DNA of 64,000 nt, from NCBI RefSeq assembly GCF_050320075.1, contig NZ_CP190018.1; one strand, 5' to 3'. Under the pieces are notes generated by a model that made no database searches, was not told the DNA's origin, and saw only the letters and a program-made list of their open reading frames with translations. Within the stretch, counting starts at the first letter, position 1. Every line of letters starts with the position of its first letter. Made by a program: the position numbers and the translations under genes. Positions 2,879 to 36,573 of the stretch are shown piece by piece. This DNA comes from Escherichia coli (GTDB lineage Bacteria; Pseudomonadota; Gammaproteobacteria; Enterobacterales; Enterobacteriaceae).

Positions 2879-3087
2879 AGACAAATCCTTCGCCAAAATT
2901 AAAGGGGCATCTGTAAAACGAGGGATTATGCGCGGCAAATAAGAAGTGCGGAAATAGCGAAATGCAAAATTATAACCTGCTGCACATTTTATTTTTAAAC
3001 GAATAAAATTTGGAATAAAGCAAGTCAGATAGAAGAAACAAAAAAGCAGAGTGTGAAACAGTAAGTTCACACTCTGCTTGAATTCAT

Positions 3088-4236
3088 TTACACGTGAGCA
3101 ACGGGTTTCGGCGTATGACCGGCGTTGCGAAGCAGCATCAGCAAATAGATAAACGATACGCTGGCGATCATGATAAACAATAAATTATCGGAGAAATTCT
3201 GCATTAGCATAGCGGTAAATGACGGGCCAAGCAGACTTCCCACGGTATAGCTCAACAGTAAGGCCTGGTTCATCGCCACCAGTTGATGATGTTCAACTTT
3301 CTCGCAAGCCCAGGCCATCGCCACCGGATATAGCGTAAAGCCAGCGGCACCGAGGATGAATAACGCTGGGGCCATCGCCGCCTGGCTAAGCATCGCGATA
3401 CTGCCGAGAATGACGACAAAGACCTGAACACGCAACACCAGCAGTCGACCAAACTTATCCGCCAGACGTCCAATCGGCCATTGTCCAAGGATACCCGCAC
3501 TGACCAGTACCGCCATCCAGAAACCAATGCTGGCATTGCTCACCCCTTTGTGATTGAGGTACAGCGGCATCAGGCCATATAGAGATCCCAGAACGATTCC
3601 TGAGATAATGCAGCCATTCACGCCAAGCCGCGCCTGACGGAGTTTTAGCATTGACGTAATTGACGTCGAATCATGGTTTTCAGCCTGCTGATTCAGCACA
3701 CGCGTAAACAACAGCGGTAAGATCCCTGCCAACGTCAAACCTGTAACCCACGGCAATACGGACATCAGCTCGGTTGAAACTTTGCTGACCAGTAACTGGC
3801 CTAAAAACGTTCCCACGTAATAAACCATCATATACGCAGCAAGCAAACGCCCACGGTTACGTGACGTCCCACTGCACATCAGCGCGCTCTCAACAACCAC
3901 CCAAATCATGGCACAGCCGACGCCGGCGACAAAACGCCAAGCCAACCAGCTCCAGAATCCAATCATCAGGCCAAGGCCGGCACAGCCAGCGGCAAAAATG
4001 AAGGAGGCCAGATAATAGCTGCGGTTAAAGCCAATGCGCTTAATGACATACCCTGTCAGCAATGTACCGACCAGGTTGCCGGTAAAATAGGATGAGCTGA
4101 CAACGCCTACCTGCCATGTGGACATGTGTTCCTGGGCGAGCCAAAGCGGCACGAGTGTATTTAACACTGCGATCGCCAGAGTCAACAAAAGCAGGCCAGA
4201 CAGCAAAAGCATGACAGGCCGGGTATACGTGGACAT
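3088..4236 (-). CDS. ycaD: MFS-family transporter
   Basis: 382-aa ORF, 12-TM-like hydrophobic profile, matches recalled YcaD. Confidence 0.85.
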
Positions 4237-6704: not shown

Positions 6705-9149
6705 TTACACCTTTTCAACCTGAACAAGGTTTGTATGTGACGGATTCCCCTTAGCGAGAGGAGACGGACGTTGAGTGGTCAGTACGTTGATACAACCTCC
6801 CTTATCGACACGTTTTGCATCCGGGTCATACCAGGCACCTTCACCCAGTGCGACCACACCCGGCATCATTCGTGGCGTCACTTTCGCCTCAATATGAACC
6901 TCACCACGATCGTTAAAGATCCTGACTTTATCGCCGTTGTTGATACCGCGTTTTTGGGCATCAAGCGGGTTGATCCACATTTCCTGACGGCAAGCCGCTT
7001 TCAGCACATCAACGTTGCCGTAAGTTGAGTGAACGCGAGATTTGTAGTGGAAGCCAGTAAGCTGCAGCGGATATTGTTTGTTCAGCGGATCCTGATAACT
7101 TTCAAAGCCCGGCGTATAGATCGGCAGTGGATCGATCACATCGCCTTCTGGCAATTCCCAGGTCGCGGCAATGTCAGCCAGCGCCTGCGAATAAATCTCA
7201 ATTTTACCCGATGGCGTGGTCAGTGGATTTGCCTGAGGATCTTCACGGAAAGCTTTATAAGCAACGTGGTGCCCTTGTGGGTCGCGCTTTTTAAAGATCC
7301 CCTGCTTGCGGAACTCTTCAAACGTTGGCAGTTCAGGAATCGCTTCCCGCGACTGGGCATACAGATGCCGCATCCACTCTTCCTGTGTACGGCCTTCAGT
7401 AAACTGTTGCTCAACGCCAAGACGTTTTGCCAGTTCGCTGGTCATTTCATAGATGGTCTTACATTCAAAGCGCGGTTTAATCACCTGATCGTTGAAAATC
7501 ACGTAAGACATATTCCCGCAGGATGCATCCAGTGCAAAGTCCATCTGTTCGGAAGCGGTGCAGTCAGGCAGCAGGATGTCAGCATATTTCGCTGATGAGG
7601 TCATGTGGCAGTCGATAACCACAATCAGCTCGCACTTCTTATCATCCTGAAGGATTTCATGGGTACGGTTGATTTCAGAATGCTGGTTAATCAGGCAGTT
7701 ACCGGCATAGTTCCAGATCATTTTGATCGGCACATCCAGCTTATCTTTCCCGCGCACACCATCACGCAGCGCTGTCATTTCCGGGCCACGTTCAATGGCA
7801 TCGGTCCACATAAACATAGAAATGCTGGTCTGGATCGGGTTTTCGAGGGTCGGCATACGCACAAACGGTAAGCTGTATGAACCTTCACGCGCGCCGCTGT
7901 TCCCTCCATTAATACCAACGTTACCGGTCAGAATCGCCAGCATCGAGATAGCACGGGTTGCGATTTCACCGTTAGCGTGACGCTGCGGGCCCCATCCCTG
8001 GCTGATAAACGCCGGTTTGGTACTACCGATTTCACGAGCCAATTTGATGATTTTGTCTGCCGGAACACCGGTGATTTGCGAGGCCCATTCCGGCGTTTTA
8101 GCTACGCCATCTGGCCCTTCACCCAGAATATAAGCTTTATAGTGACCATTTTTCGGCGCACTGGCAGGCAGTGTTTTCTCGTCGTAGCCAACGCAATATT
8201 TATCGAGGAATGCCTGATCCACCAGGTTTTCGGTGATCATGACATACGCCAGACCGTTAACCAGTGCGGCATCTGTTCCCGGACGAATAGGGATCCACTC
8301 ATCTTCGCGCCCGGCTCCGGTGTCGGTATAGCGCGGATCGATGATGATCATGCGAGCATTAGATTTCTGACGCGCCTGTTCAAGATAGTAAGTCACCCCA
8401 CCGCCACTCATTCGCGTTTCGCCAGGGTTATTACCAAACAGCACTACCAGTTTACTGTTTTCGATATCCGACGGGCTGTTACCATCTGCCCAGCCGCCGT
8501 AGGTATAGTTCAAACCTTCCGCAATTTGCGCGGAAGAGTAGTCACCGTAATGGTTCAGATAACCGCCGCAGCAGTTCATCAGGCGAGCGACCAGGGTATT
8601 TCCCGGCGGCCAGGAGCGGGTCATGGTGCCACCCAGCGTACCGGTGCCATAGTTCAGATAGATGGATTCGTTGCCGTACTCTTTGATCAGGCGCTGCATA
8701 TTGGTCGCGATGATGTCGTAGGCTTCTTCCCAGCTAATGCGCTCGAATTTGCCTTCACCGCGCGCTCCGACTCGTTTCATCGGATATTTCAGGCGGTCCG
8801 GATTGTAGACACGGCGACGCATGGAACGACCACGCAGACAGGCGCGCACCTGGTGCAGGCCGTCATAGTTGTCATCGCCAGTATTATCCGTTTCAACATA
8901 TTTGATTTCACCGTCCACGACGTGCATACGTAGCGGGCAGCGACTACCACAGTTAACTGTACAGGCGCTCCAGATAACCTTTTCGTCTGATTTTGTTGGA
9001 ATGGCGCTATTGACAGCGTGCGCAATCCGACTAAAAGGTAATGTTAACGCGCTGCTGGCCATTGCCAGGCCGCCGATCGCTGTCGTTTTTACCAAACCAC
9101 GGCGACTCACCTCAGCAGCCAATACCGCATCAGGGATTTTCGTTTTCAT
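6705..9149 (-). CDS. dmsA: DMSO reductase catalytic (molybdopterin) subunit
   Basis: 814-aa ORF with N-terminal twin-arginine signal (SRRGLVK); operon dmsABC. Confidence 0.95.
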   Translation of the reverse strand: MKTKIPDAVLAAEVSRRGLVKTTAIGGLAMASSALTLPFSRIAHAVNSAIPTKSDEKVIWSACTVNCGSRCPLRMHVVDGEIKYVETDNTGDDNYDGLHQVRACLRGRSMRRRVYNPDRLKYPMKRVGARGEGKFERISWEEAYDIIATNMQRLIKEYGNESIYLNYGTGTLGGTMTRSWPPGNTLVARLMNCCGGYLNHYGDYSSAQIAEGLNYTYGGWADGNSPSDIENSKLVVLFGNNPGETRMSGGGVTYYLEQARQKSNARMIIIDPRYTDTGAGREDEWIPIRPGTDAALVNGLAYVMITENLVDQAFLDKYCVGYDEKTLPASAPKNGHYKAYILGEGPDGVAKTPEWASQITGVPADKIIKLAREIGSTKPAFISQGWGPQRHANGEIATRAISMLAILTGNVGINGGNSGAREGSYSLPFVRMPTLENPIQTSISMFMWTDAIERGPEMTALRDGVRGKDKLDVPIKMIWNYAGNCLINQHSEINRTHEILQDDKKCELIVVIDCHMTSSAKYADILLPDCTASEQMDFALDASCGNMSYVIFNDQVIKPRFECKTIYEMTSELAKRLGVEQQFTEGRTQEEWMRHLYAQSREAIPELPTFEEFRKQGIFKKRDPQGHHVAYKAFREDPQANPLTTPSGKIEIYSQALADIAATWELPEGDVIDPLPIYTPGFESYQDPLNKQYPLQLTGFHYKSRVHSTYGNVDVLKAACRQEMWINPLDAQKRGINNGDKVRIFNDRGEVHIEAKVTPRMMPGVVALGEGAWYDPDAKRVDKGGCINVLTTQRPSPLAKGNPSHTNLVQVEKV

Positions 9150-9387
9150 AATGGCTCACTCAAGCTTGCTCACGATTGATTCCAGTAACAAACCGTATTG
9201 TGTAATTATTTCTATAGCAGGTCGCTATATAGGCTTGTATACATCGAATAATTTGAAAATCAAAGAGATAGGTAGATTTTCACTCGAAAGTAGTATTACG
9301 TGTAAGTGAGGAGTAATTATTGTTCGGTATCAAAGGGAGACAAAAAAAGCGCCCGCAGGCGCTTTTTAGATTCAGAAAAATTGGGTA

Positions 9388-12894: not shown

Positions 12895-15800
12895 TTAGTC
12901 AAACGGCGGTGGGGCCAGCACTTCACGATTACCGTTGTGCCCCTGTTCGCTGACAATCCCCTGCGCTTCCATCTGTTCGATAATACGCGCTGCACGGTTA
13001 TAACCAATGCGGAACTGACGCTGTACGCCAGAAATTGATGCTTTGCGTTTTTCAGTGACAAACTGCACCGCCTGATCGAACAACGGATCCAGCTCTTCAG
13101 CGCCATCGAAACCGCCCGCGCCACCTTCGCTTTCACTGTCGGAGGTGATGCCATCAACATACTGTGGGCGACCACGCGCTTTCCAGTCCTGCACCACGGC
13201 ATGAACTTCCTGATCGCGAACAAAAGCACCATGAACACGTACCGGCAACGTGGAGTTCGGCCCAGAGTAAAGCATATCCCCCATACCCAGCAGTGATTCC
13301 GCGCCAGCCTGATCAAGAATGGTACGTGAGTCAATCTTACTGGATACGGTAAAGGCGATACGGGTCGGAATATTCGCTTTAATCAGACCAGTAATAACAT
13401 CAACCGATGGACGCTGCGTTGCCAGTACGAGGTGGATACCCGCGGCACGGGCTTTTTGCGCCAGACGTGCTATAAGCTCTTCCACTTTTTTACCTACCGT
13501 CATCATCAGGTCGGCAAATTCGTCCACCAACACCACAATGTACGGTTCTTTTTTCAGCACCGGATGCTGGGCATCCATACTGTCACCCGGCTTCCAGTAC
13601 GGGTCTGGAATCGGACGCATCATGCGATCGGCTTCAGCAATTTTTTCGTTATAACCCGCCAGATTACGCACACCTAGGGCGGACATCAGCTTATAACGAC
13701 GTTCCATTTCATTTACGCACCAGCGCAAAGCGTTGGCAGCATCTTTCATGTCGGTAACGACTTCCGTTAACAGATGCGGAATGCCTTCATAAACCGAAAG
13801 CTCCAGCATTTTCGGGTCGATCATGATGAAACGCACATCTTCTGGCTGTGCTTTATAAAGCATGCTCAGGATCATCGCGTTCACCCCGACAGACTTACCG
13901 GAACCGGTAGTCCCCGCAACCAACAAGTGCGGCATTTTCGCCAGATCGGCAACCACCGGCTCACCGGCGATATCTTTACCCAGCACCACGGTTAATGGCG
14001 ACGGATTATCGCGGAATTTGGCGTTATCCAATACTTCGCGCAGATAAACGGTTTGTCGTTTTTTATTCGGTAACTCCAGACCTACATAGGGTTTGCCAGG
14101 AATAACTTCAACGACACGCACCGCCACCGTCGAAAGTGAACGGGCAAGGTCCCGTGACAAGTTAGAAATGCGCGCCGCTTTTACGCCCGGTGCCAGGTTA
14201 AGTTCAAAGCGAGTGATAACCGGCCCCGGAGAGTAATTGACGACATCGGCTTTAATACGGAAATCAGCCAGACGCGCTTCCACCAGACGCGCCATTTGTT
14301 CAAGCGCAAAGGTATCTACCGGCTCCACTTCGCTCGGCGGCGGTGTCAGCAAATCCAGAGAAGGCAGCGGCGTCGTCGGTTTATGCAACGGACGGCTGTC
14401 ACCATTGCGCATCAACAGCGGATGAAGCAGGGTATCATGCGGCTGCGGCGCAACTGGCTGTTGCGGCTGCTGATATTGCGGCTGCTGTGCAACCGGCTGT
14501 TGCGGCTGCTGATATTGCTGCTGCGGCGCAACCGGTTGTTGTGGCTGCTGATATTGCTGCTGCGGTGCAACCGGCTGTTGCGGCTGCTGATACTGCGGCT
14601 GCGGCGCAACTGGTTGCTGCGGCTGCTGATACTGTTGCTGCGGTGCAATCGGTTGTTGCGGCTGCTGTACAGGTTCAACAATTGGCGTAAACAACGGTTC
14701 GTGTGGACCATCATCCAGCAACGCTTTCATTGGCGAAAATTCAAAATCATCCAGCGTGAACGGATTCGCCCCAGCCGGTTGTTCGCCGGAATAACGTTGT
14801 TGTTGAGTTTGCGCAAACTGACGAGCCAGTTCAGCCTCTGCCGCAGCATCTGCATCTTCTGCGTTCACGGGCACATCATGTTGATACTGTTCGCCATAGC
14901 GTTGCTGCTGTGTCTGGGCGAACTGACGTGCCAGTTCATCCTGCTGCATCGCATCGATTTCATCATCGTTATACTGATCGCCGGAATCGTACTGATTGCG
15001 CTGAGCTTCACGGGCTTTTTCTTCTGCCGCACGCTGTGAGGGCAGCTTAATACCGTAAGACGCCAGTTCACGACGAGTTGGCACGCGGATACGTTTCGGT
15101 CGTGGCAACTGCGGGCCAATCCCCTCTTTGACCTGTGGACGCGGTCCAGCGCTATTTGCCAGACTGAAGACTGGCGCGGCAACGGTTGCGGCAGCCCCCG
15201 TCGCCAGTGTCGCTTTTTTCACGCCAGATGCCAGAGGGGAAACAGCGGCAGCGGCTTCCACTGGAGGTACTGCTGCAACAGAAGGTGTTTTCAGCGAAGA
15301 TTTGATCGGTTCTGGTTCTTTAACCGGTTCAGGAATCGGTTGATACCAGGCCGCAAGTTGTTCACGTTCACGGGCACGCTTCTCTTCCACTTCTTCAAAA
15401 TAGTAAAGCGGCGGACGCGCGGGTTTTGTCTCTTCTACAACGGGTTCAGGCTCCACAACAGGCTGCTGTTCAACAGGTTGCGGCTGTTGGTACAACGGCT
15501 CCTGAGCGACTGGCTGCTGATAAGTTTGCTCAGTCTGGTATGTAGACTGTGGAGCAAAAGTGGATTGCTGCTCTTCGGCTTGCCAGGCGTTACCTGCCAC
15601 CGATTGTTCTGGCGCAGGGGCGTAATACGACTGTTGCGCAGACTGTTCCGGCGCAGTTGCGTAATACGGCTGCTGAACAGGTTGTTCCGCCGCAGGAGCG
15701 TAGTAAGGTTGTTGCACAGGTTGTTCCGCTGCTGGCGCATAATACGGCTGCTGTGGCTGTACAGGTTGTTGCAGCGGCTCATTATATTGCACTGCAGGCT

Positions 15801-24214: not shown

Positions 24215-24302
24215 GGTGAGGTGTCCGAGTGGCTGAAGGAGCACGCCTGGAAAGTGTGTATACGGCAACGTATCGGGGGTTCGAATCCCCCCCTCACCGC
24301 CA
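24215..24302 (+). tRNA. serW: tRNA-Ser (GGA anticodon)
   Basis: 88-nt GGTGAGGTGTCCGAGTGGCTGAAGGAGCACGCCTGGAAAG...GGGGGTTCGAATCCCCCCCTCACCGCCA; long variable arm, encoded CCA. Confidence 0.95.
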
Positions 24303-24659
24303 TATTTAAAGAAAAGCTCGTACGAAAGTGCGAGCTTTTTTTTCGCATATTGCACTCCAGGGGGGATGAGAAGCCCCGACCGGGGTTCGACAACTGGCGC
24401 AGCCAGTTGGACAGACCACGAACACAGTGAGTGGGCTGCCCGCAGGGCGAGCGAAGCGAGTCAATCCCCCCCTCACCGCCATATTCAAAGAAGAGCTCGT
24501 ACGAAAGTGCGAGCTTTTTTTTCGCATATTGCACTCCAGGGGGGATGAGAAGCCCCGACCGGGGTTCGACAACTGGCGCAGCCAGTTGGACAGACCACGA
24601 ACACAGTGAGTGGGCTGCCCGCAGGGCGAGCGAAGCGAGTCAATCCCCCCTCACCGCCA
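24303..24659 (+). repeat. two tandem ~178-bp units (24303-24481, 24482-24659), each = terminator hairpin + ~110 bp GC-rich segment + last ~18 nt of serW
   Basis: Units near-identical; each ends in tcaatcccccc(c)tcaccgcca and begins with aaagctcgtacgaaagtgcgagcttttttttt hairpin; a third copy of the hairpin follows at 24660. Confidence 0.85.
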
Positions 24660-24940
24660 TATTTAAAGAAAAGCTCGTACGAAAGTACGAGTTTTTTTTC
24701 GCATTTTATCTGCCTGTACGGCAGTGAACGGTATAAAAATCGAGTTTTTCTTTCGGTTGGCTTTCTAAGCTGCCTGTACGGCAGTGAACTCAAATACTAC
24801 ACGTTTAGTCCGTTATTAATAAAGCAAAACCATCTCATTTTCCTGCTGCCACCCTTTTTTATTCTTACCTTCCAGCACCATTAATTATCAACAACTTACC
24901 TTCACCTCCAAAAATAGGGTTTTCACCGCCCCAGCCTACA

Positions 24941-34494: not shown

Positions 34495-35190
34495 ATGTTC
34501 AGAAAATTAGCAGCTGAATGTTTTGGTACTTTCTGGCTTGTTTTTGGTGGCTGTGGTAGTGCCGTACTGGCCGCAGGCTTCCCGGAATTAGGCATTGGTT
34601 TTGCCGGCGTGGCGCTGGCATTCGGTCTGACCGTTCTGACGATGGCCTTTGCTGTTGGTCATATTTCTGGTGGTCATTTTAACCCGGCGGTCACTATTGG
34701 TTTATGGGCTGGCGGACGTTTCCCGGCAAAAGAAGTCGTTGGCTACGTAATTGCCCAGGTTGTCGGCGGTATTGTTGCGGCGGCGCTGCTGTATTTAATT
34801 GCCAGTGGTAAAACGGGTTTTGACGCGGCAGCCAGCGGTTTTGCTTCTAACGGTTATGGCGAGCATTCGCCAGGCGATTATTCCATGCTTTCCGCGCTGG
34901 TAGTTGAACTGGTATTGAGTGCAGGTTTCCTGCTGGTGATCCACGGCGCAACCGACAAATTCGCTCCTGCTGGTTTTGCGCCGATCGCTATTGGTCTGGC
35001 CTTAACCCTGATTCACTTAATCAGTATTCCGGTGACTAACACTTCTGTTAACCCGGCGCGCAGCACCGCGGTTGCTATCTTCCAGGGCGGCTGGGCGTTA
35101 GAACAACTGTGGTTCTTCTGGGTGGTGCCAATTGTCGGCGGTATTATCGGTGGTCTGATTTACCGGACTCTACTGGAAAAGCGTAATTAA
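34495..35190 (+). CDS. aqpZ: aquaporin Z
   Basis: ORF 34489..35190 trimmed to ATG at 34495 ([24 protein letters not shown]...); two NPA motifs (HFNPAVT, VNPARS). Confidence 0.96.
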
Positions 35191-35199
35191 TTAACGCAG

Positions 35200-35229
35200 A
35201 AGGCCTGGCGCAATGTCAGGCCTTTTTTA
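35200..35229 (+). terminator. rho-independent terminator downstream of aqpZ
   Basis: Hairpin aggcctg...caggcct followed by T6. Confidence 0.8.
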
Positions 35230-35282
35230 AATATATTGATTCATCTTCCTGTTGCGCTCCTTGATGTGTTAAGCCACATATA

Positions 35283-35513
35283 GTCACTGGCGCAGGGAGC
35301 GCGCAGGGGGCGGCCAATCGCCGCCGCCCCCTGCACCCCCGGGCTCTGGCGAACAAAATCGCCGCTGCGCGGTGCCCTCGACTTATCCCTTACGGCTACC
35401 GGGTCGGGCGCGAGGTAACATCCCTGTAAAACGCGCCCTCAGCCCACATCCATGTGGGCTGCCCCGGCCTTCAGGGAACGCCTCGGCGATTTTGACGCCA
35501 CCAACACCGGTGC
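35283..35513. repeat. GC-rich (~70%) structured intergenic element with several palindromes and an imperfect ~17-bp inverted repeat
   Basis: Palindrome gcagggggcgg-N10-ccgccccctgc (35303-35334); perfect 22-bp palindrome cagcccacat-cc-atgtgggctg (35440-35461); inverted repeat ggcgaacaaaatcgccg (35349-35365) / cggcgattttgacgcc (35486-35501). Confidence 0.55.
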
Positions 35514-35673
35514 GGTTTGTAATTAAAGCGCAAGAATATCTTTAAATGAAAATGAATACCCTACCGATCCTTATGCATAACATTTCCTTTTAATTGCAAC
35601 TTTACTCGTCCTTCCGCTTTCAGTAGTGTGTCATCGCGCATTTCGACTTCATCTTTGCAAGGACTGGGTTTTC

Positions 35674-36573
35674 ATGTTTTCTGGGCTGTTAATCATTCTG
35701 GTTCCCCTGATTGTGGGTTACCTCATTCCTCTTCGCCAAAAAGCTGCATTAAGAGTTATTAATCAGCTATTAAGCTGGATGGTTTACCTCATTCTCTTTT
35801 TTATGGGTATCAGTCTGGCGTTTCTCGATAACCTCGCCAGTAACCTGTTGGCGATTCTGCATTATTCCGCCGTCAGCATTACCATTATTTTACTCTGCAA
35901 TATTATTGCGTTGTTGTGGCTGGAGCGCGGTCTGCCGTGGCGCAACCACCACCAGCAAGAAAAACTCCCGTCGCGTATTGCGATGGCGCTGGAGTCGCTA
36001 AAACTGTGCGGCGTAGTAGTGATTGGTTTTGCCATTGGCCTGAGTGGACTGGCTTTCTTACAACATGCGACCGAAGCCAGTGAATACACCTTAATTCTGC
36101 TACTTTTCCTCGTCGGTATTCAGTTGCGCAATAATGGCATGACCTTAAAGCAGATTGTCCTTAATCGCCGGGGAATGATTGTCGCCGTGGTGGTGGTTGC
36201 CAGTTCATTAATTGGTGGTTTAATTAACGCCTTTATTCTTGATCTTCCCATCAATACCGCGCTGGCAATGGCCTCTGGTTTCGGCTGGTATTCTCTTTCC
36301 GGTATTTTATTGACTGAATCTTTTGGTCCGGTAATCGGGAGCGCGGCGTTTTTTAATGATCTGGCCCGTGAGCTGATTGCAATTATGTTGATCCCTGGGC
36401 TGATTCGCCGCAGCCGCTCTACCGCACTGGGCTTATGCGGTGCGACGTCGATGGATTTCACCCTGCCCGTTCTTCAACGTACTGGCGGGCTGGATATGGT
36501 CCCGGCGGCAATTGTTCACGGTTTTATTCTTAGCCTGTTAGTGCCGATCCTCATCGCCTTTTTCTCTGCGTAA
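35674..36573 (+). CDS. ybjE: lysine exporter LysO
   Basis: ORF 35626..36573 trimmed to ATG at 35674 (MFSGLLIILVPLIVGYLIPLRQ..., 299 aa); polytopic membrane protein. Confidence 0.88.
   Translation: MFSGLLIILVPLIVGYLIPLRQKAALRVINQLLSWMVYLILFFMGISLAFLDNLASNLLAILHYSAVSITIILLCNIIALLWLERGLPWRNHHQQEKLPSRIAMALESLKLCGVVVIGFAIGLSGLAFLQHATEASEYTLILLLFLVGIQLRNNGMTLKQIVLNRRGMIVAVVVVASSLIGGLINAFILDLPINTALAMASGFGWYSLSGILLTESFGPVIGSAAFFNDLARELIAIMLIPGLIRRSRSTALGLCGATSMDFTLPVLQRTGGLDMVPAAIVHGFILSLLVPILIAFFSA

Follow-up and report, generated by a model that had tools for sequence, protein, structure and literature searches.

We analyzed a 64,000-nucleotide stretch of Escherichia coli DNA (contig NZ_CP190018.1 of assembly GCF_050320075.1; here called the window) and, within it, a palindromic block between aqpZ and lysO. 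K-12 is collinear with the window, which is reverse-complemented relative to MG1655 coordinates. Gene order around the block is ybjD (minus strand), aqpZ (plus strand, ending at 35190), lysO (plus strand, with its ATG at 35674), and hcp (plus strand). An earlier note, made from the letters of the sequence, had boxed positions 35283 to 35513 as a block of ~70% guanine-plus-cytosine (GC) content in AT-rich intergenic DNA following the aqpZ terminator. Indeed, the GC content of this box is 68.8%, compared with 41.3% to its left (35191 to 35282), 38.1% to its right (35514 to 35673), and 51% for the window as a whole. The aqpZ terminator hairpin is located at 35200 to 35228 (AAGGCCTG, a 9-nt loop, and CAGGCCTT, followed by a T-run); our terminator scan had a loop limit of 8 nt and hence missed it. 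The replication risk sequence RRS-lysO, one of two in E. coli, has been defined as the region 168 to 389 bp upstream of the lysO start codon (Pham et al., PMC10592627). Given a lysO ATG at 35674, this definition corresponds to positions 35285 to 35506, a 222-bp core with a GC content of 68.5% that agrees with RRS-lysO in size, position, and composition and is nearly the same as the box.

The same repeat has also been described as TRIP1 (Rudd 1999; Li et al. 2024, PMC10888264). Copy TRIP1a was placed at MG1655 positions 915016 to 915281, 31 bp after the aqpZ terminator hairpin, so that the block was correctly described as following that terminator. The window copy is 96% identical over 321 bp to MG1655 914981 to 915301, a span containing TRIP1a, and 100% identical to E. 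coli strain CFSAN061763; its orientation relative to aqpZ and lysO is the same as in K-12. Comparison with the paralog between dusC and yohP (88.5% identity over 304 bp), together with an alignment of 24 units, extends the full repeat unit to approximately 35240 to 35541. Hence, the box captured the GC-rich core and fell short of the unit, which contains both TRIP1a (~35251 to 35516) and the "extended RRS" (35240 to 35506). We conclude with high confidence that the palindromic block between aqpZ and lysO is RRS-lysO, which is also TRIP1a, and that it acts as DNA and not as a gene. The element is thus already known and experimentally characterized, and finding it here is a correct rediscovery. 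It has no annotation in the RefSeq/PGAP records that we examined, MG1655 included, and genome scans will keep rediscovering it for that reason. Identity with BoxC, RSA, or ERIC elements was considered and found no support in literature searches. A coding function was also rejected: open reading frames of 31 to 57 amino acids overlap the block, and 1-nt insertions or deletions between copies break every frame.

The published G-quadruplex (G4) motif GGGGGTGCAGGGGGCGGCGG (PMC10592627) has an exact match in the window at 35321 to 35340 on the minus strand. The match is unique in the window, with 0 expected by chance, and is confined to one strand. Plus-strand GC skew was negative in all 8 of the 8-kb bins, Chi sites numbered 6 on the plus strand and 15 on the minus strand, and KOPS numbered 0 and 6, respectively. 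Together, these features indicate that the minus strand carries the leading-strand sequence and would therefore serve as the lagging-strand template. With its G4 on that strand, the window copy is predicted to be in the "native" active orientation. In the RRS papers, the elements lie ~650 kb from dif, on either side of the Ter macrodomain, with the K-12 copy at 915 kb; the window copy presumably has the corresponding position, as judged from synteny with K-12 and from those papers.

What the element does is known from work on the K-12 copy. Peaks of single-stranded DNA, detected through RecA and SSB, occur at both RRS, and each peak is lost upon deletion of its RRS (PMC10287960). In vitro, DNA polymerases (Pol) I, II, and IV were blocked at the G4 strand, and Pol III synthesis in M13 was reduced about 2-fold (PMC10592627). 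Insertion of RRS at an ectopic site in native orientation created a new peak (PMC10592627; also PMC11194060), and inverted RRS gave no peak in vivo (PMC10592627). Deletion of RRS-lysO caused no measurable growth defect; deletion of both RRS was obtained only together with insH7-8 amplification, which involves a 200-kb region, and it changed supercoiling genome-wide, with topology changes detected by Psora-seq (PMC10592627). Inversion of both RRS, like their removal, altered genome-wide supercoiling in the published K-12 experiments. In single-molecule assays, a gap formed at nearly every replisome encounter when the G4 strand was the lagging-strand template and in ~66% of encounters when the C strand was the template (PMC13308219, a 2026 preprint from Kusi-Appauh). 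The gaps described for the K-12 copy are ~0.3 to 2 kb long and loaded with SSB and RecA.

For the K-12 copy, the experiments show four steps. Replisome passage leaves the lagging-strand template briefly single stranded at RRS; the single-stranded RRS folds into a G-quadruplex plus an extensive multi-hairpin structure; the folded DNA blocks the lagging-strand polymerase, and synthesis restarts downstream; and a gap of ~0.3 to 2 kb bound by SSB and RecA remains. That such transient gaps relieve topological stress near the Ter domain is a proposal of the authors of those papers. For the window copy, lagging-strand gap formation is an extrapolation from the K-12 copy, to which we add a computed, predicted fold of the single-stranded DNA. 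Genomic sequences that program single-stranded gaps in replication have been described in only two classes, of which RRS is one; RRS also appears to shape the topology of the chromosome around the terminus. The earlier note had suggested a small structured RNA, a miniature inverted-repeat element, or a structured leader of lysO. As accounts of function, all three give way to the experiments, which show a DNA-acting replication risk sequence (PMC10287960, PMC10592627, PMC13308219).

The predicted structure of the unit is a series of hairpins. At the left end is hairpin A (35254 to 35302), in which an inverted-repeat search paired GCGCTCCTT with AGGGAGCGC. Hairpin B (35303 to 35334) follows, with a perfect 12-bp GC stem (arms 35303 to 35314 and 35323 to 35334, 100% complementary) and an 8-nt loop, and overlaps the G4 motif. 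A closing helix, P0/P1, joins 35347 to 35364 with 35484 to 35500, and the small hairpin P1a (GCCGC/GCGGT) occupies 35361 to 35373. Hairpin 2 (35406 to 35438) has the stem GGGCGCG/CGCGCCC; its minus strand carries ACA-GGGA-UGU, and the loop on that strand reads UUACAGGGAUGU. Hairpin 1 (35440 to 35461), which reads CAGCCCACA-UGGA-UGUGGGCUG on the minus strand, consists of two 10-nt arms (35440 to 35449 and 35452 to 35461, 100% complementary) around a central CC. Three inverted repeats had been noted here previously, and all three are real, with corrections. The palindrome at 35303 to 35334 is a perfect hairpin with arms of 12 nt rather than 11. The "perfect" 22-bp palindrome at 35440 to 35461 has fully complementary arms and a central CC that is not self-complementary, giving 20 of 22 positions. 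The ~17-bp pair given as 35349 to 35365 and 35486 to 35501 was close to the repeat that we measured, which spans 35354 to 35369 and 35479 to 35494 (16 nt, 88% complementary) and is extended by TGGCG/CGCCA at 35347 to 35351 and 35496 to 35500. The claim of a structured element was also borne out. For RNA, folding z scores were −5.41 for the minus strand and −5.32 for the plus strand; for DNA, they were −6.95 and −6.92 for the two strands. In each of these four tests, 0 of 200 dinucleotide shuffles folded as well as the real sequence.

We looked for compensatory changes in the 24-unit alignment, which includes units from several Escherichia species, Pseudocitrobacter, Kluyvera, another Enterobacteriaceae genome, and a divergent subfamily adjoining REP sequences. 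The structure scored, with 9 helices and 66 pairs, was drawn by hand from the window sequence, and three lineages are the source of many of the changes. Across the 24 units, 93.4% of cells were paired, compared with 86.0% in column shuffles and 34 to 49% when partners were slid. Changes on both sides were observed in 25 of 66 pairs, compared with 11.8 ± 2.3 in shuffles, and none of 500 shuffles reached 25. RNAalifold agreed for the helices that it found. Hairpin A was paired in 94.9% of cells, with 3 pairs changed on both sides (e.g., CG to UA and CG to AU). In hairpin B, 6 of 12 pairs had compensatory changes on both sides, as in GCAGGGGGAGGAC...GCCTCCTCCCCCTGC of dusC-type alleles. P1a was paired in 100% of cells (3 of 5 pairs changed on both sides), and hairpin 1 was paired in 97.2% (5 of 9 pairs changed on both sides), with an invariant loop. 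The closing helix P0/P1 covaries across subfamilies, with TGGCG/CGCCA, CCGGC/GCCGG, and CCCCGC/GCGGGG as alternatives. A test for strand asymmetry, in which invariant and weak pairs were set aside, gave 47 G-T and 43 A-C departures from Watson-Crick pairing; these symmetric counts do not indicate a single RNA strand and are what is expected for duplex or hairpin complementarity on both strands.

Because the compensatory changes preserve pairing on both strands, we infer that the whole hairpin architecture, including the arm that holds the G4, is under selection. If so, the block to synthesis probably comes from the entire folded multi-hairpin structure rather than from the G4 by itself, and the selected feature would be the whole fold, not only the quadruplex. 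That both strands could fold agrees with the 2026 observation of blocked synthesis on the C strand as well (PMC13308219). The covariation described here, together with the relation to TwoAYGGAY RNAs, the dimers, and the natural inverted alleles described below, adds to the RRS papers that we consulted, from which these observations are absent.

Of 5,426 complete E. coli genomes, 5,425 contain a 251-bp region of the element, with a median of 3 places per genome and a maximum of 10, and the central 127 bp alone is likewise multicopy. The element is thus the opposite of the single-copy, poorly conserved sequence that the earlier note had said would count against it. No second copy was found in a search of the 64-kb window. 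MG1655 has three copies, located as published. TRIP1a (914981 to 915301) has its G4 on the top strand, and TRIP1c, or RRS-dusC (2229115 to 2229388, 94% identity), has its G4 on the bottom strand. Hence, the window copy has high identity to K-12 copies that include a second, inverted copy near dusC. TRIP1b, after putP (putP-efeU), is internally deleted. TRIP1d, in other strains, is located at alx-sstT; these paralogs match those in the literature. Li et al. (PMC10888264) assigned 99% of E. coli copies to five fixed loci. A paper on yohP (PMC12719787) contains nothing on the repeat.

Both orientations of the unit occur in nature. Between aqpZ and lysO, the unit is inverted relative to the genes in strains E69, Z1323HEC0475, and O157:H7 strain 7636 (1201 to 1447 of locus stretch L093), and ~28% of complete E. 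coli genomes belong, by identity, to the class with the inverted lysO allele. Between dusC and yohP, the K-12 arrangement occurs in 3,313 genomes and the opposite arrangement in ~2,100 (~39%), including PSUO2 and O157:H7; in O157:H7 strain MD2019EC2705C4, the inverted copy is at 2904 to 3207 of locus stretch L005. The O157:H7 copies at lysO and dusC were examined in two different strains; a single genome with both inversions, if there is one, would represent a natural "double-inverted RRS" lineage. At alx-sstT, K-12 and GF131 have no unit, 1424KP has it in one orientation, and E. whittamii has it in the other. At all three loci, the 50 to 90 bp adjoining the unit differ between opposite-orientation alleles, indicating that these are not simple in-place inversions. 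Possible sources are insertions that occurred independently, loss of one or the other half of an ancestral inverted dimer like that of Kluyvera, or recombination between copies; recombination between TRIP1 copies has been documented (Li et al. 2024, PMC10888264). Our frequencies agree with the reversed copies counted by Li et al. (1,255 of 4,703 and 2,789 of 5,741) and sit uneasily with statements that RRS orientation is conserved. Large lineages with one or both RRS inverted are natural experiments on the orientation requirement.

Several individual alleles have further differences. The aqpZ terminator hairpin is absent from strains with the inverted allele, in which a wholly different spacer follows aqpZ. 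At least four alleles of the alx-sstT spacer occur; those of K-12 (L088, 483 to 880) and GF131 (L089) carry GGGAGAGGG/GGGTGAGGG-type repeats, with one copy more in K-12, and other strains have TRIP1d in their place. In the 1424KP copy at this locus (L090, 570 to 836), hairpin 1 is changed to CGCGCAUGGAUGCGCG and its loop is kept. In E. whittamii (L064, ~8480 to 8690), a subfamily-2 unit is interrupted just after P1a by a ~75-bp insertion with its own palindromes. Two records labeled as plasmids, pZ1323HEC0475-2 (42 kb) and pMTY11352_3 (88 kb), carry chromosomal poxB-hcr-hcp-lysO-aqpZ-ybjD-ybjX segments with internally deleted RRS variants, missing the equivalents of window positions 35345 to 35461 and 35408 to 35482. 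In E. coli SX12, the dusC-yohP region, where the RRS-dusC unit lies, contains an inserted copy of IS1B.

A search of Rfam with cmscan matched window positions 35356 to 35495, on the minus strand, to the TwoAYGGAY model (RF01731, model positions 1 to 168) with 30.6 bits (E = 0.013). The Rfam comparison proposed earlier therefore yielded a full-length match, at a score below the gathering score of 43; the dusC copy scored 28.4 bits. We searched 100,044 species genomes for exact copies of hairpin 1 (GCCCACATCCATGTGGGC) and obtained 81 stretches. Among them were complete units from Escherichia, Pseudocitrobacter, Kluyvera, and others; 11 copies from Edaphovirga cremea; several each from Shewanella and a Thiotrichaceae metagenome-assembled genome (MAG); and three from Lachnospiraceae MAGs. 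The right-hand (second) unit of a Pseudocitrobacter dimer, which aligns with TRIP1 along its whole length, scored 49.2 bits, above the gathering score. The Lachnospiraceae copies (L071, L026, and L070) are bona fide TwoAYGGAY members, with 72 to 79 bits, and another relative (L039) scored 57.4 bits. E. coli and Lachnospiraceae share 24 identical nucleotides in TwoAYGGAY hairpin 1 (CAGCCCACATGGATGTGGGCTGAG). The hairpin 1 loop, AUGGAU, fits AYGGAY. For the hairpin 2 loop, the window has AGGGAU and the dusC allele has AAGGAC, each with R at position 2; two related copies (L027 and L040) have AUGGAU, and Psychromonas seed sequences have AGGGAC and AGGGAU. The covarying closing helix P0/P1 corresponds to the long closing P1 typical of TwoAYGGAY, a motif reported to be multicopy, to have no fixed gene context, and in many cases to have a very long P1 (Weinberg et al. 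2010). Because sister units and the Lachnospiraceae copies score above the Rfam threshold, membership of the RRS core in the TwoAYGGAY family, as a divergent member on the same strand as the G4, is well supported by sequence comparison.

The distant relatives share more than the core. Pseudocitrobacter (mdlB-glnK) and Kluyvera (recD-argA) have 570-bp tail-to-tail dimers of two divergent units, away from the E. coli loci; dimers span L014 1860 to 2428, L040 9218 to 9772, L072 3744 to 4314, and L081 5272 to 5905. A 183-amino-acid open reading frame overlapping the Pseudocitrobacter dimer was rejected as coding, since its frame is broken by 1-nt insertions or deletions between copies. In Lachnospiraceae MAGs, TwoAYGGAY lies at the center of palindromes of ~560 to 590 bp (L071, 4101 to 4686; L026, 1329 to 1886), and the outer arm carries a strict G4 motif (GGGCGGTGGGGCAGGGAGAGTAGGGGGGGG) on the AYGGAY strand. 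Shewanella copies have a G-rich tract 90 to 105 nt 3′ of the core on the same strand; the E. coli G4 is at +119. This parallel among E. coli, Shewanella, and Lachnospiraceae is suggestive. Edaphovirga cremea has at least 11 loci with tandem and inverted arrays, up to >1 kb, in which the second GGA hairpin is on the other side of hairpin 1. TwoAYGGAY is distributed among gut Clostridia, Shewanella, Psychromonas, Thiotrichaceae, and Enterobacteriaceae, often in multiple copies and often inside palindromes of several hundred base pairs with a G-rich tract 3′ of the core on the same strand. We tentatively suggest, as a possibility that we hold to be less probable than its negation, that the RRS core and TwoAYGGAY form one family of foldable DNA elements marking sequences that trigger replication-coupled gaps. 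If true, programmed gap elements would be widespread across phyla, and an orphan RNA motif of 2010 would be RRS-like DNA. The link to TwoAYGGAY also provides, already compiled, a set of candidates for RRS analogues in other phyla.

Four points weigh against the reading of the block as RRS-lysO acting through replication gaps. First, the mechanism rests on three papers, all from one group of collaborating laboratories. Second, the compensatory changes in hairpin B argue for a selected hairpin rather than a G4. Third, a purely structural block to the polymerase does not account for the very strong conservation of the loops (CAUGGAUG and ACAGGGAUGU) across distant taxa. Fourth, orientation is not conserved in nature, which fits uneasily with a strict need for the lagging-strand template to carry the G4. 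The last problem is softened by the 2026 preprint, since in those assays the C strand also triggered gaps (PMC13308219).

We considered whether the element is a nonautonomous mobile element of MITE type (miniature inverted-repeat transposable element), whose distribution reflects transposition and whose cellular role is secondary. This concerns origin and is compatible with RRS function. The multicopy distribution, with up to 10 places per genome, is as expected for such an element, as are presence or absence at alx-sstT among strains, the two orientations with different adjoining spacers at each of three loci, the 570-bp dimers at unrelated loci in Pseudocitrobacter and Kluyvera, and the arrays in Edaphovirga cremea. 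The unit also has short, imperfect terminal inverted repeats (TGTTGCGCTCC and TTCTTGCGCTTT), and internal-deletion derivatives occur. However, conservation fades gradually at both ends, such that neither sharp ends nor a target-site duplication can be defined; comparison of opposite-orientation alleles at aqpZ-lysO, dusC-yohP, and alx-sstT revealed no target-site duplication or clean junction. Inspection of flanks of up to 7 kb revealed no associated transposase, and the restriction of 99% of E. coli copies to five fixed loci (PMC10888264) and the possible origin of opposite orientations from loss of halves of an ancestral dimer or from recombination also count against transposition. An autonomous parent element was sought and rejected: the Edaphovirga loci are arrays of units that share no protein gene, and the Pseudocitrobacter and Kluyvera flanks contain ordinary housekeeping genes. 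The earlier suggestion of a MITE therefore survives only as a possible origin, one that we regard as rather unlikely.

An RNA function is less probable still. Here, the minus strand would encode a small structured RNA of the TwoAYGGAY class, and its loops CA-UGGA-UG and ACA-GGGA-UGU would bind a CsrA dimer, titrating or recruiting CsrA. The SELEX consensus for CsrA is RUACARGGAUGU, and UUACAGGGAUGU matches it at 11 of 12 positions. The full-length minus-strand match to TwoAYGGAY and the scores of the dusC, Pseudocitrobacter, and Lachnospiraceae copies given above are also consistent with an RNA; TwoAYGGAY has been proposed to be a CsrA-binding small RNA (Gardner and Eldai, PMC4333381), and Li et al. 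noted a stable "double-Y" RNA fold (PMC10888264). However, the window match is below the Rfam gathering score, and no promoter-like or terminator-like site of the element's own was found on either strand; near the left end, a TATNTGA-like motif is conserved but lacks a conserved −35 partner. Orientation relative to neighboring genes is free at all three loci, departures from pairing lack a G-U versus A-C strand asymmetry, and some copies have an A-C mismatch in hairpin 2 on the AYGGAY strand. In the cross-linking immunoprecipitation (CLIP) data for CsrA (Potts 2017, supplement), which cover one growth condition, ybjE and dusC are scored "No" at the gene level, and a coordinate search of the supplement files revealed no peak at either locus. 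Moreover, a DNA-level function has already been shown by experiment. An RNA that binds CsrA is thus a minor and improbable rival, a side hypothesis carried by the subthreshold TwoAYGGAY match. It is compatible with RRS acting as DNA: as a mirror of the relation proposed above, RRS may also be transcribed into a CsrA-binding RNA.

Position alone (31 bp past the aqpZ terminator hairpin, 168 bp upstream of lysO) favors a long structured 5′ leader or cis element of lysO, or a 3′-untranslated-region element of aqpZ. Such a role is effectively excluded, because the same unit follows dusC, putP, and alx and lies in mdlB-glnK and recD-argA of other genera, is inverted at aqpZ-lysO in E69, Z1323, and O157:H7, is partly deleted in some strains, matches no riboswitch or leader family in Rfam, and can be deleted at lysO without measurable growth defect (PMC10592627).

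Other features of the window lie away from the element. A tRNA at 24215 to 24299 is followed by three 179-bp RtT-type repeats (24284 to 24699), two of which pass the Rfam RtT threshold, and a lone CRISPR-DR4 match at 24762 to 24789 has no array around it. Positions 9240 to 9374 strongly match the enterobacterial small RNA STnc130 (140 bits, plus strand). Tandem 39-bp repeats occur at 14399 to 14706 (6 copies) and 15599 to 15753 (3 copies), with 65 to 90% identity; their period is a multiple of three, and they may be within a coding region.

We compared RRS, as a DNA element, with known systems. Like REP/BIME, ERIC/IRU, and BoxC elements, it is GC-rich, palindromic, intergenic, multicopy, and strain variable, and it follows stop codons or terminators. 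However, its unit is ~290 bp long, whereas REP, ERIC, and BoxC units measure 35 to 40, 127, and 56 bp, respectively. RRS lacks the REP consensus and has 2 to 10 copies (median, 3) rather than the hundreds of REP, in agreement with the earlier statement that the block is not a canonical REP; a true REP-derived match (naRNA4) occurs elsewhere in one compared stretch (L004) and not in RRS. At alx-sstT, the RRS unit replaces GGGAGAGGG/GGGTGAGGG-type repeats rather than resembling them. CsrB, CsrC, and McaS also have GGA motifs in short hairpin loops, and the two motifs in RRS, ~20 nt apart, would suit one CsrA dimer. Unlike those RNAs, RRS has two sites only and lacks evidence of a promoter or transcript, BarA/UvrY-type regulation, or CLIP signal in the data that we checked.

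According to the RRS authors, programmed gaps are triggered, apart from RRS, by only one genomic sequence described so far, the pilE G-quadruplex of Neisseria gonorrhoeae. It differs from RRS in being a short G4 that needs a dedicated small RNA transcript and serves pilin antigenic variation, with neither a multi-hairpin repeat unit nor a link to Ter-domain topology. We know of no sequence similarity between the two.

TwoAYGGAY resembles RRS in having a long closing helix around two hairpins with A-N-GGA-Y loops, in the identity of hairpin 1 (CAGCCCACAUGGAUGUGGGCUGAG) over 24 nt with Lachnospiraceae members (72 to 79 bits), and in being multicopy with no fixed gene neighborhood and a "very large P1"; sister units of the repeat pass the gathering score. 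The window copy differs in scoring 30.6 bits (<43), in having AGGGAU (R for Y at position 2) as its second loop, and in the ~110 extra bp outside the motif (hairpins A and B and the G4 tract) that the E. coli unit contains. Moreover, TwoAYGGAY is catalogued as an RNA of unknown function, whereas RRS has a demonstrated DNA-level activity. With RRS/TRIP1 itself, the window copy shares the locus, the coordinates relative to lysO, the exact G4 motif, the orientation, and the paralogs, and nothing essential differs.

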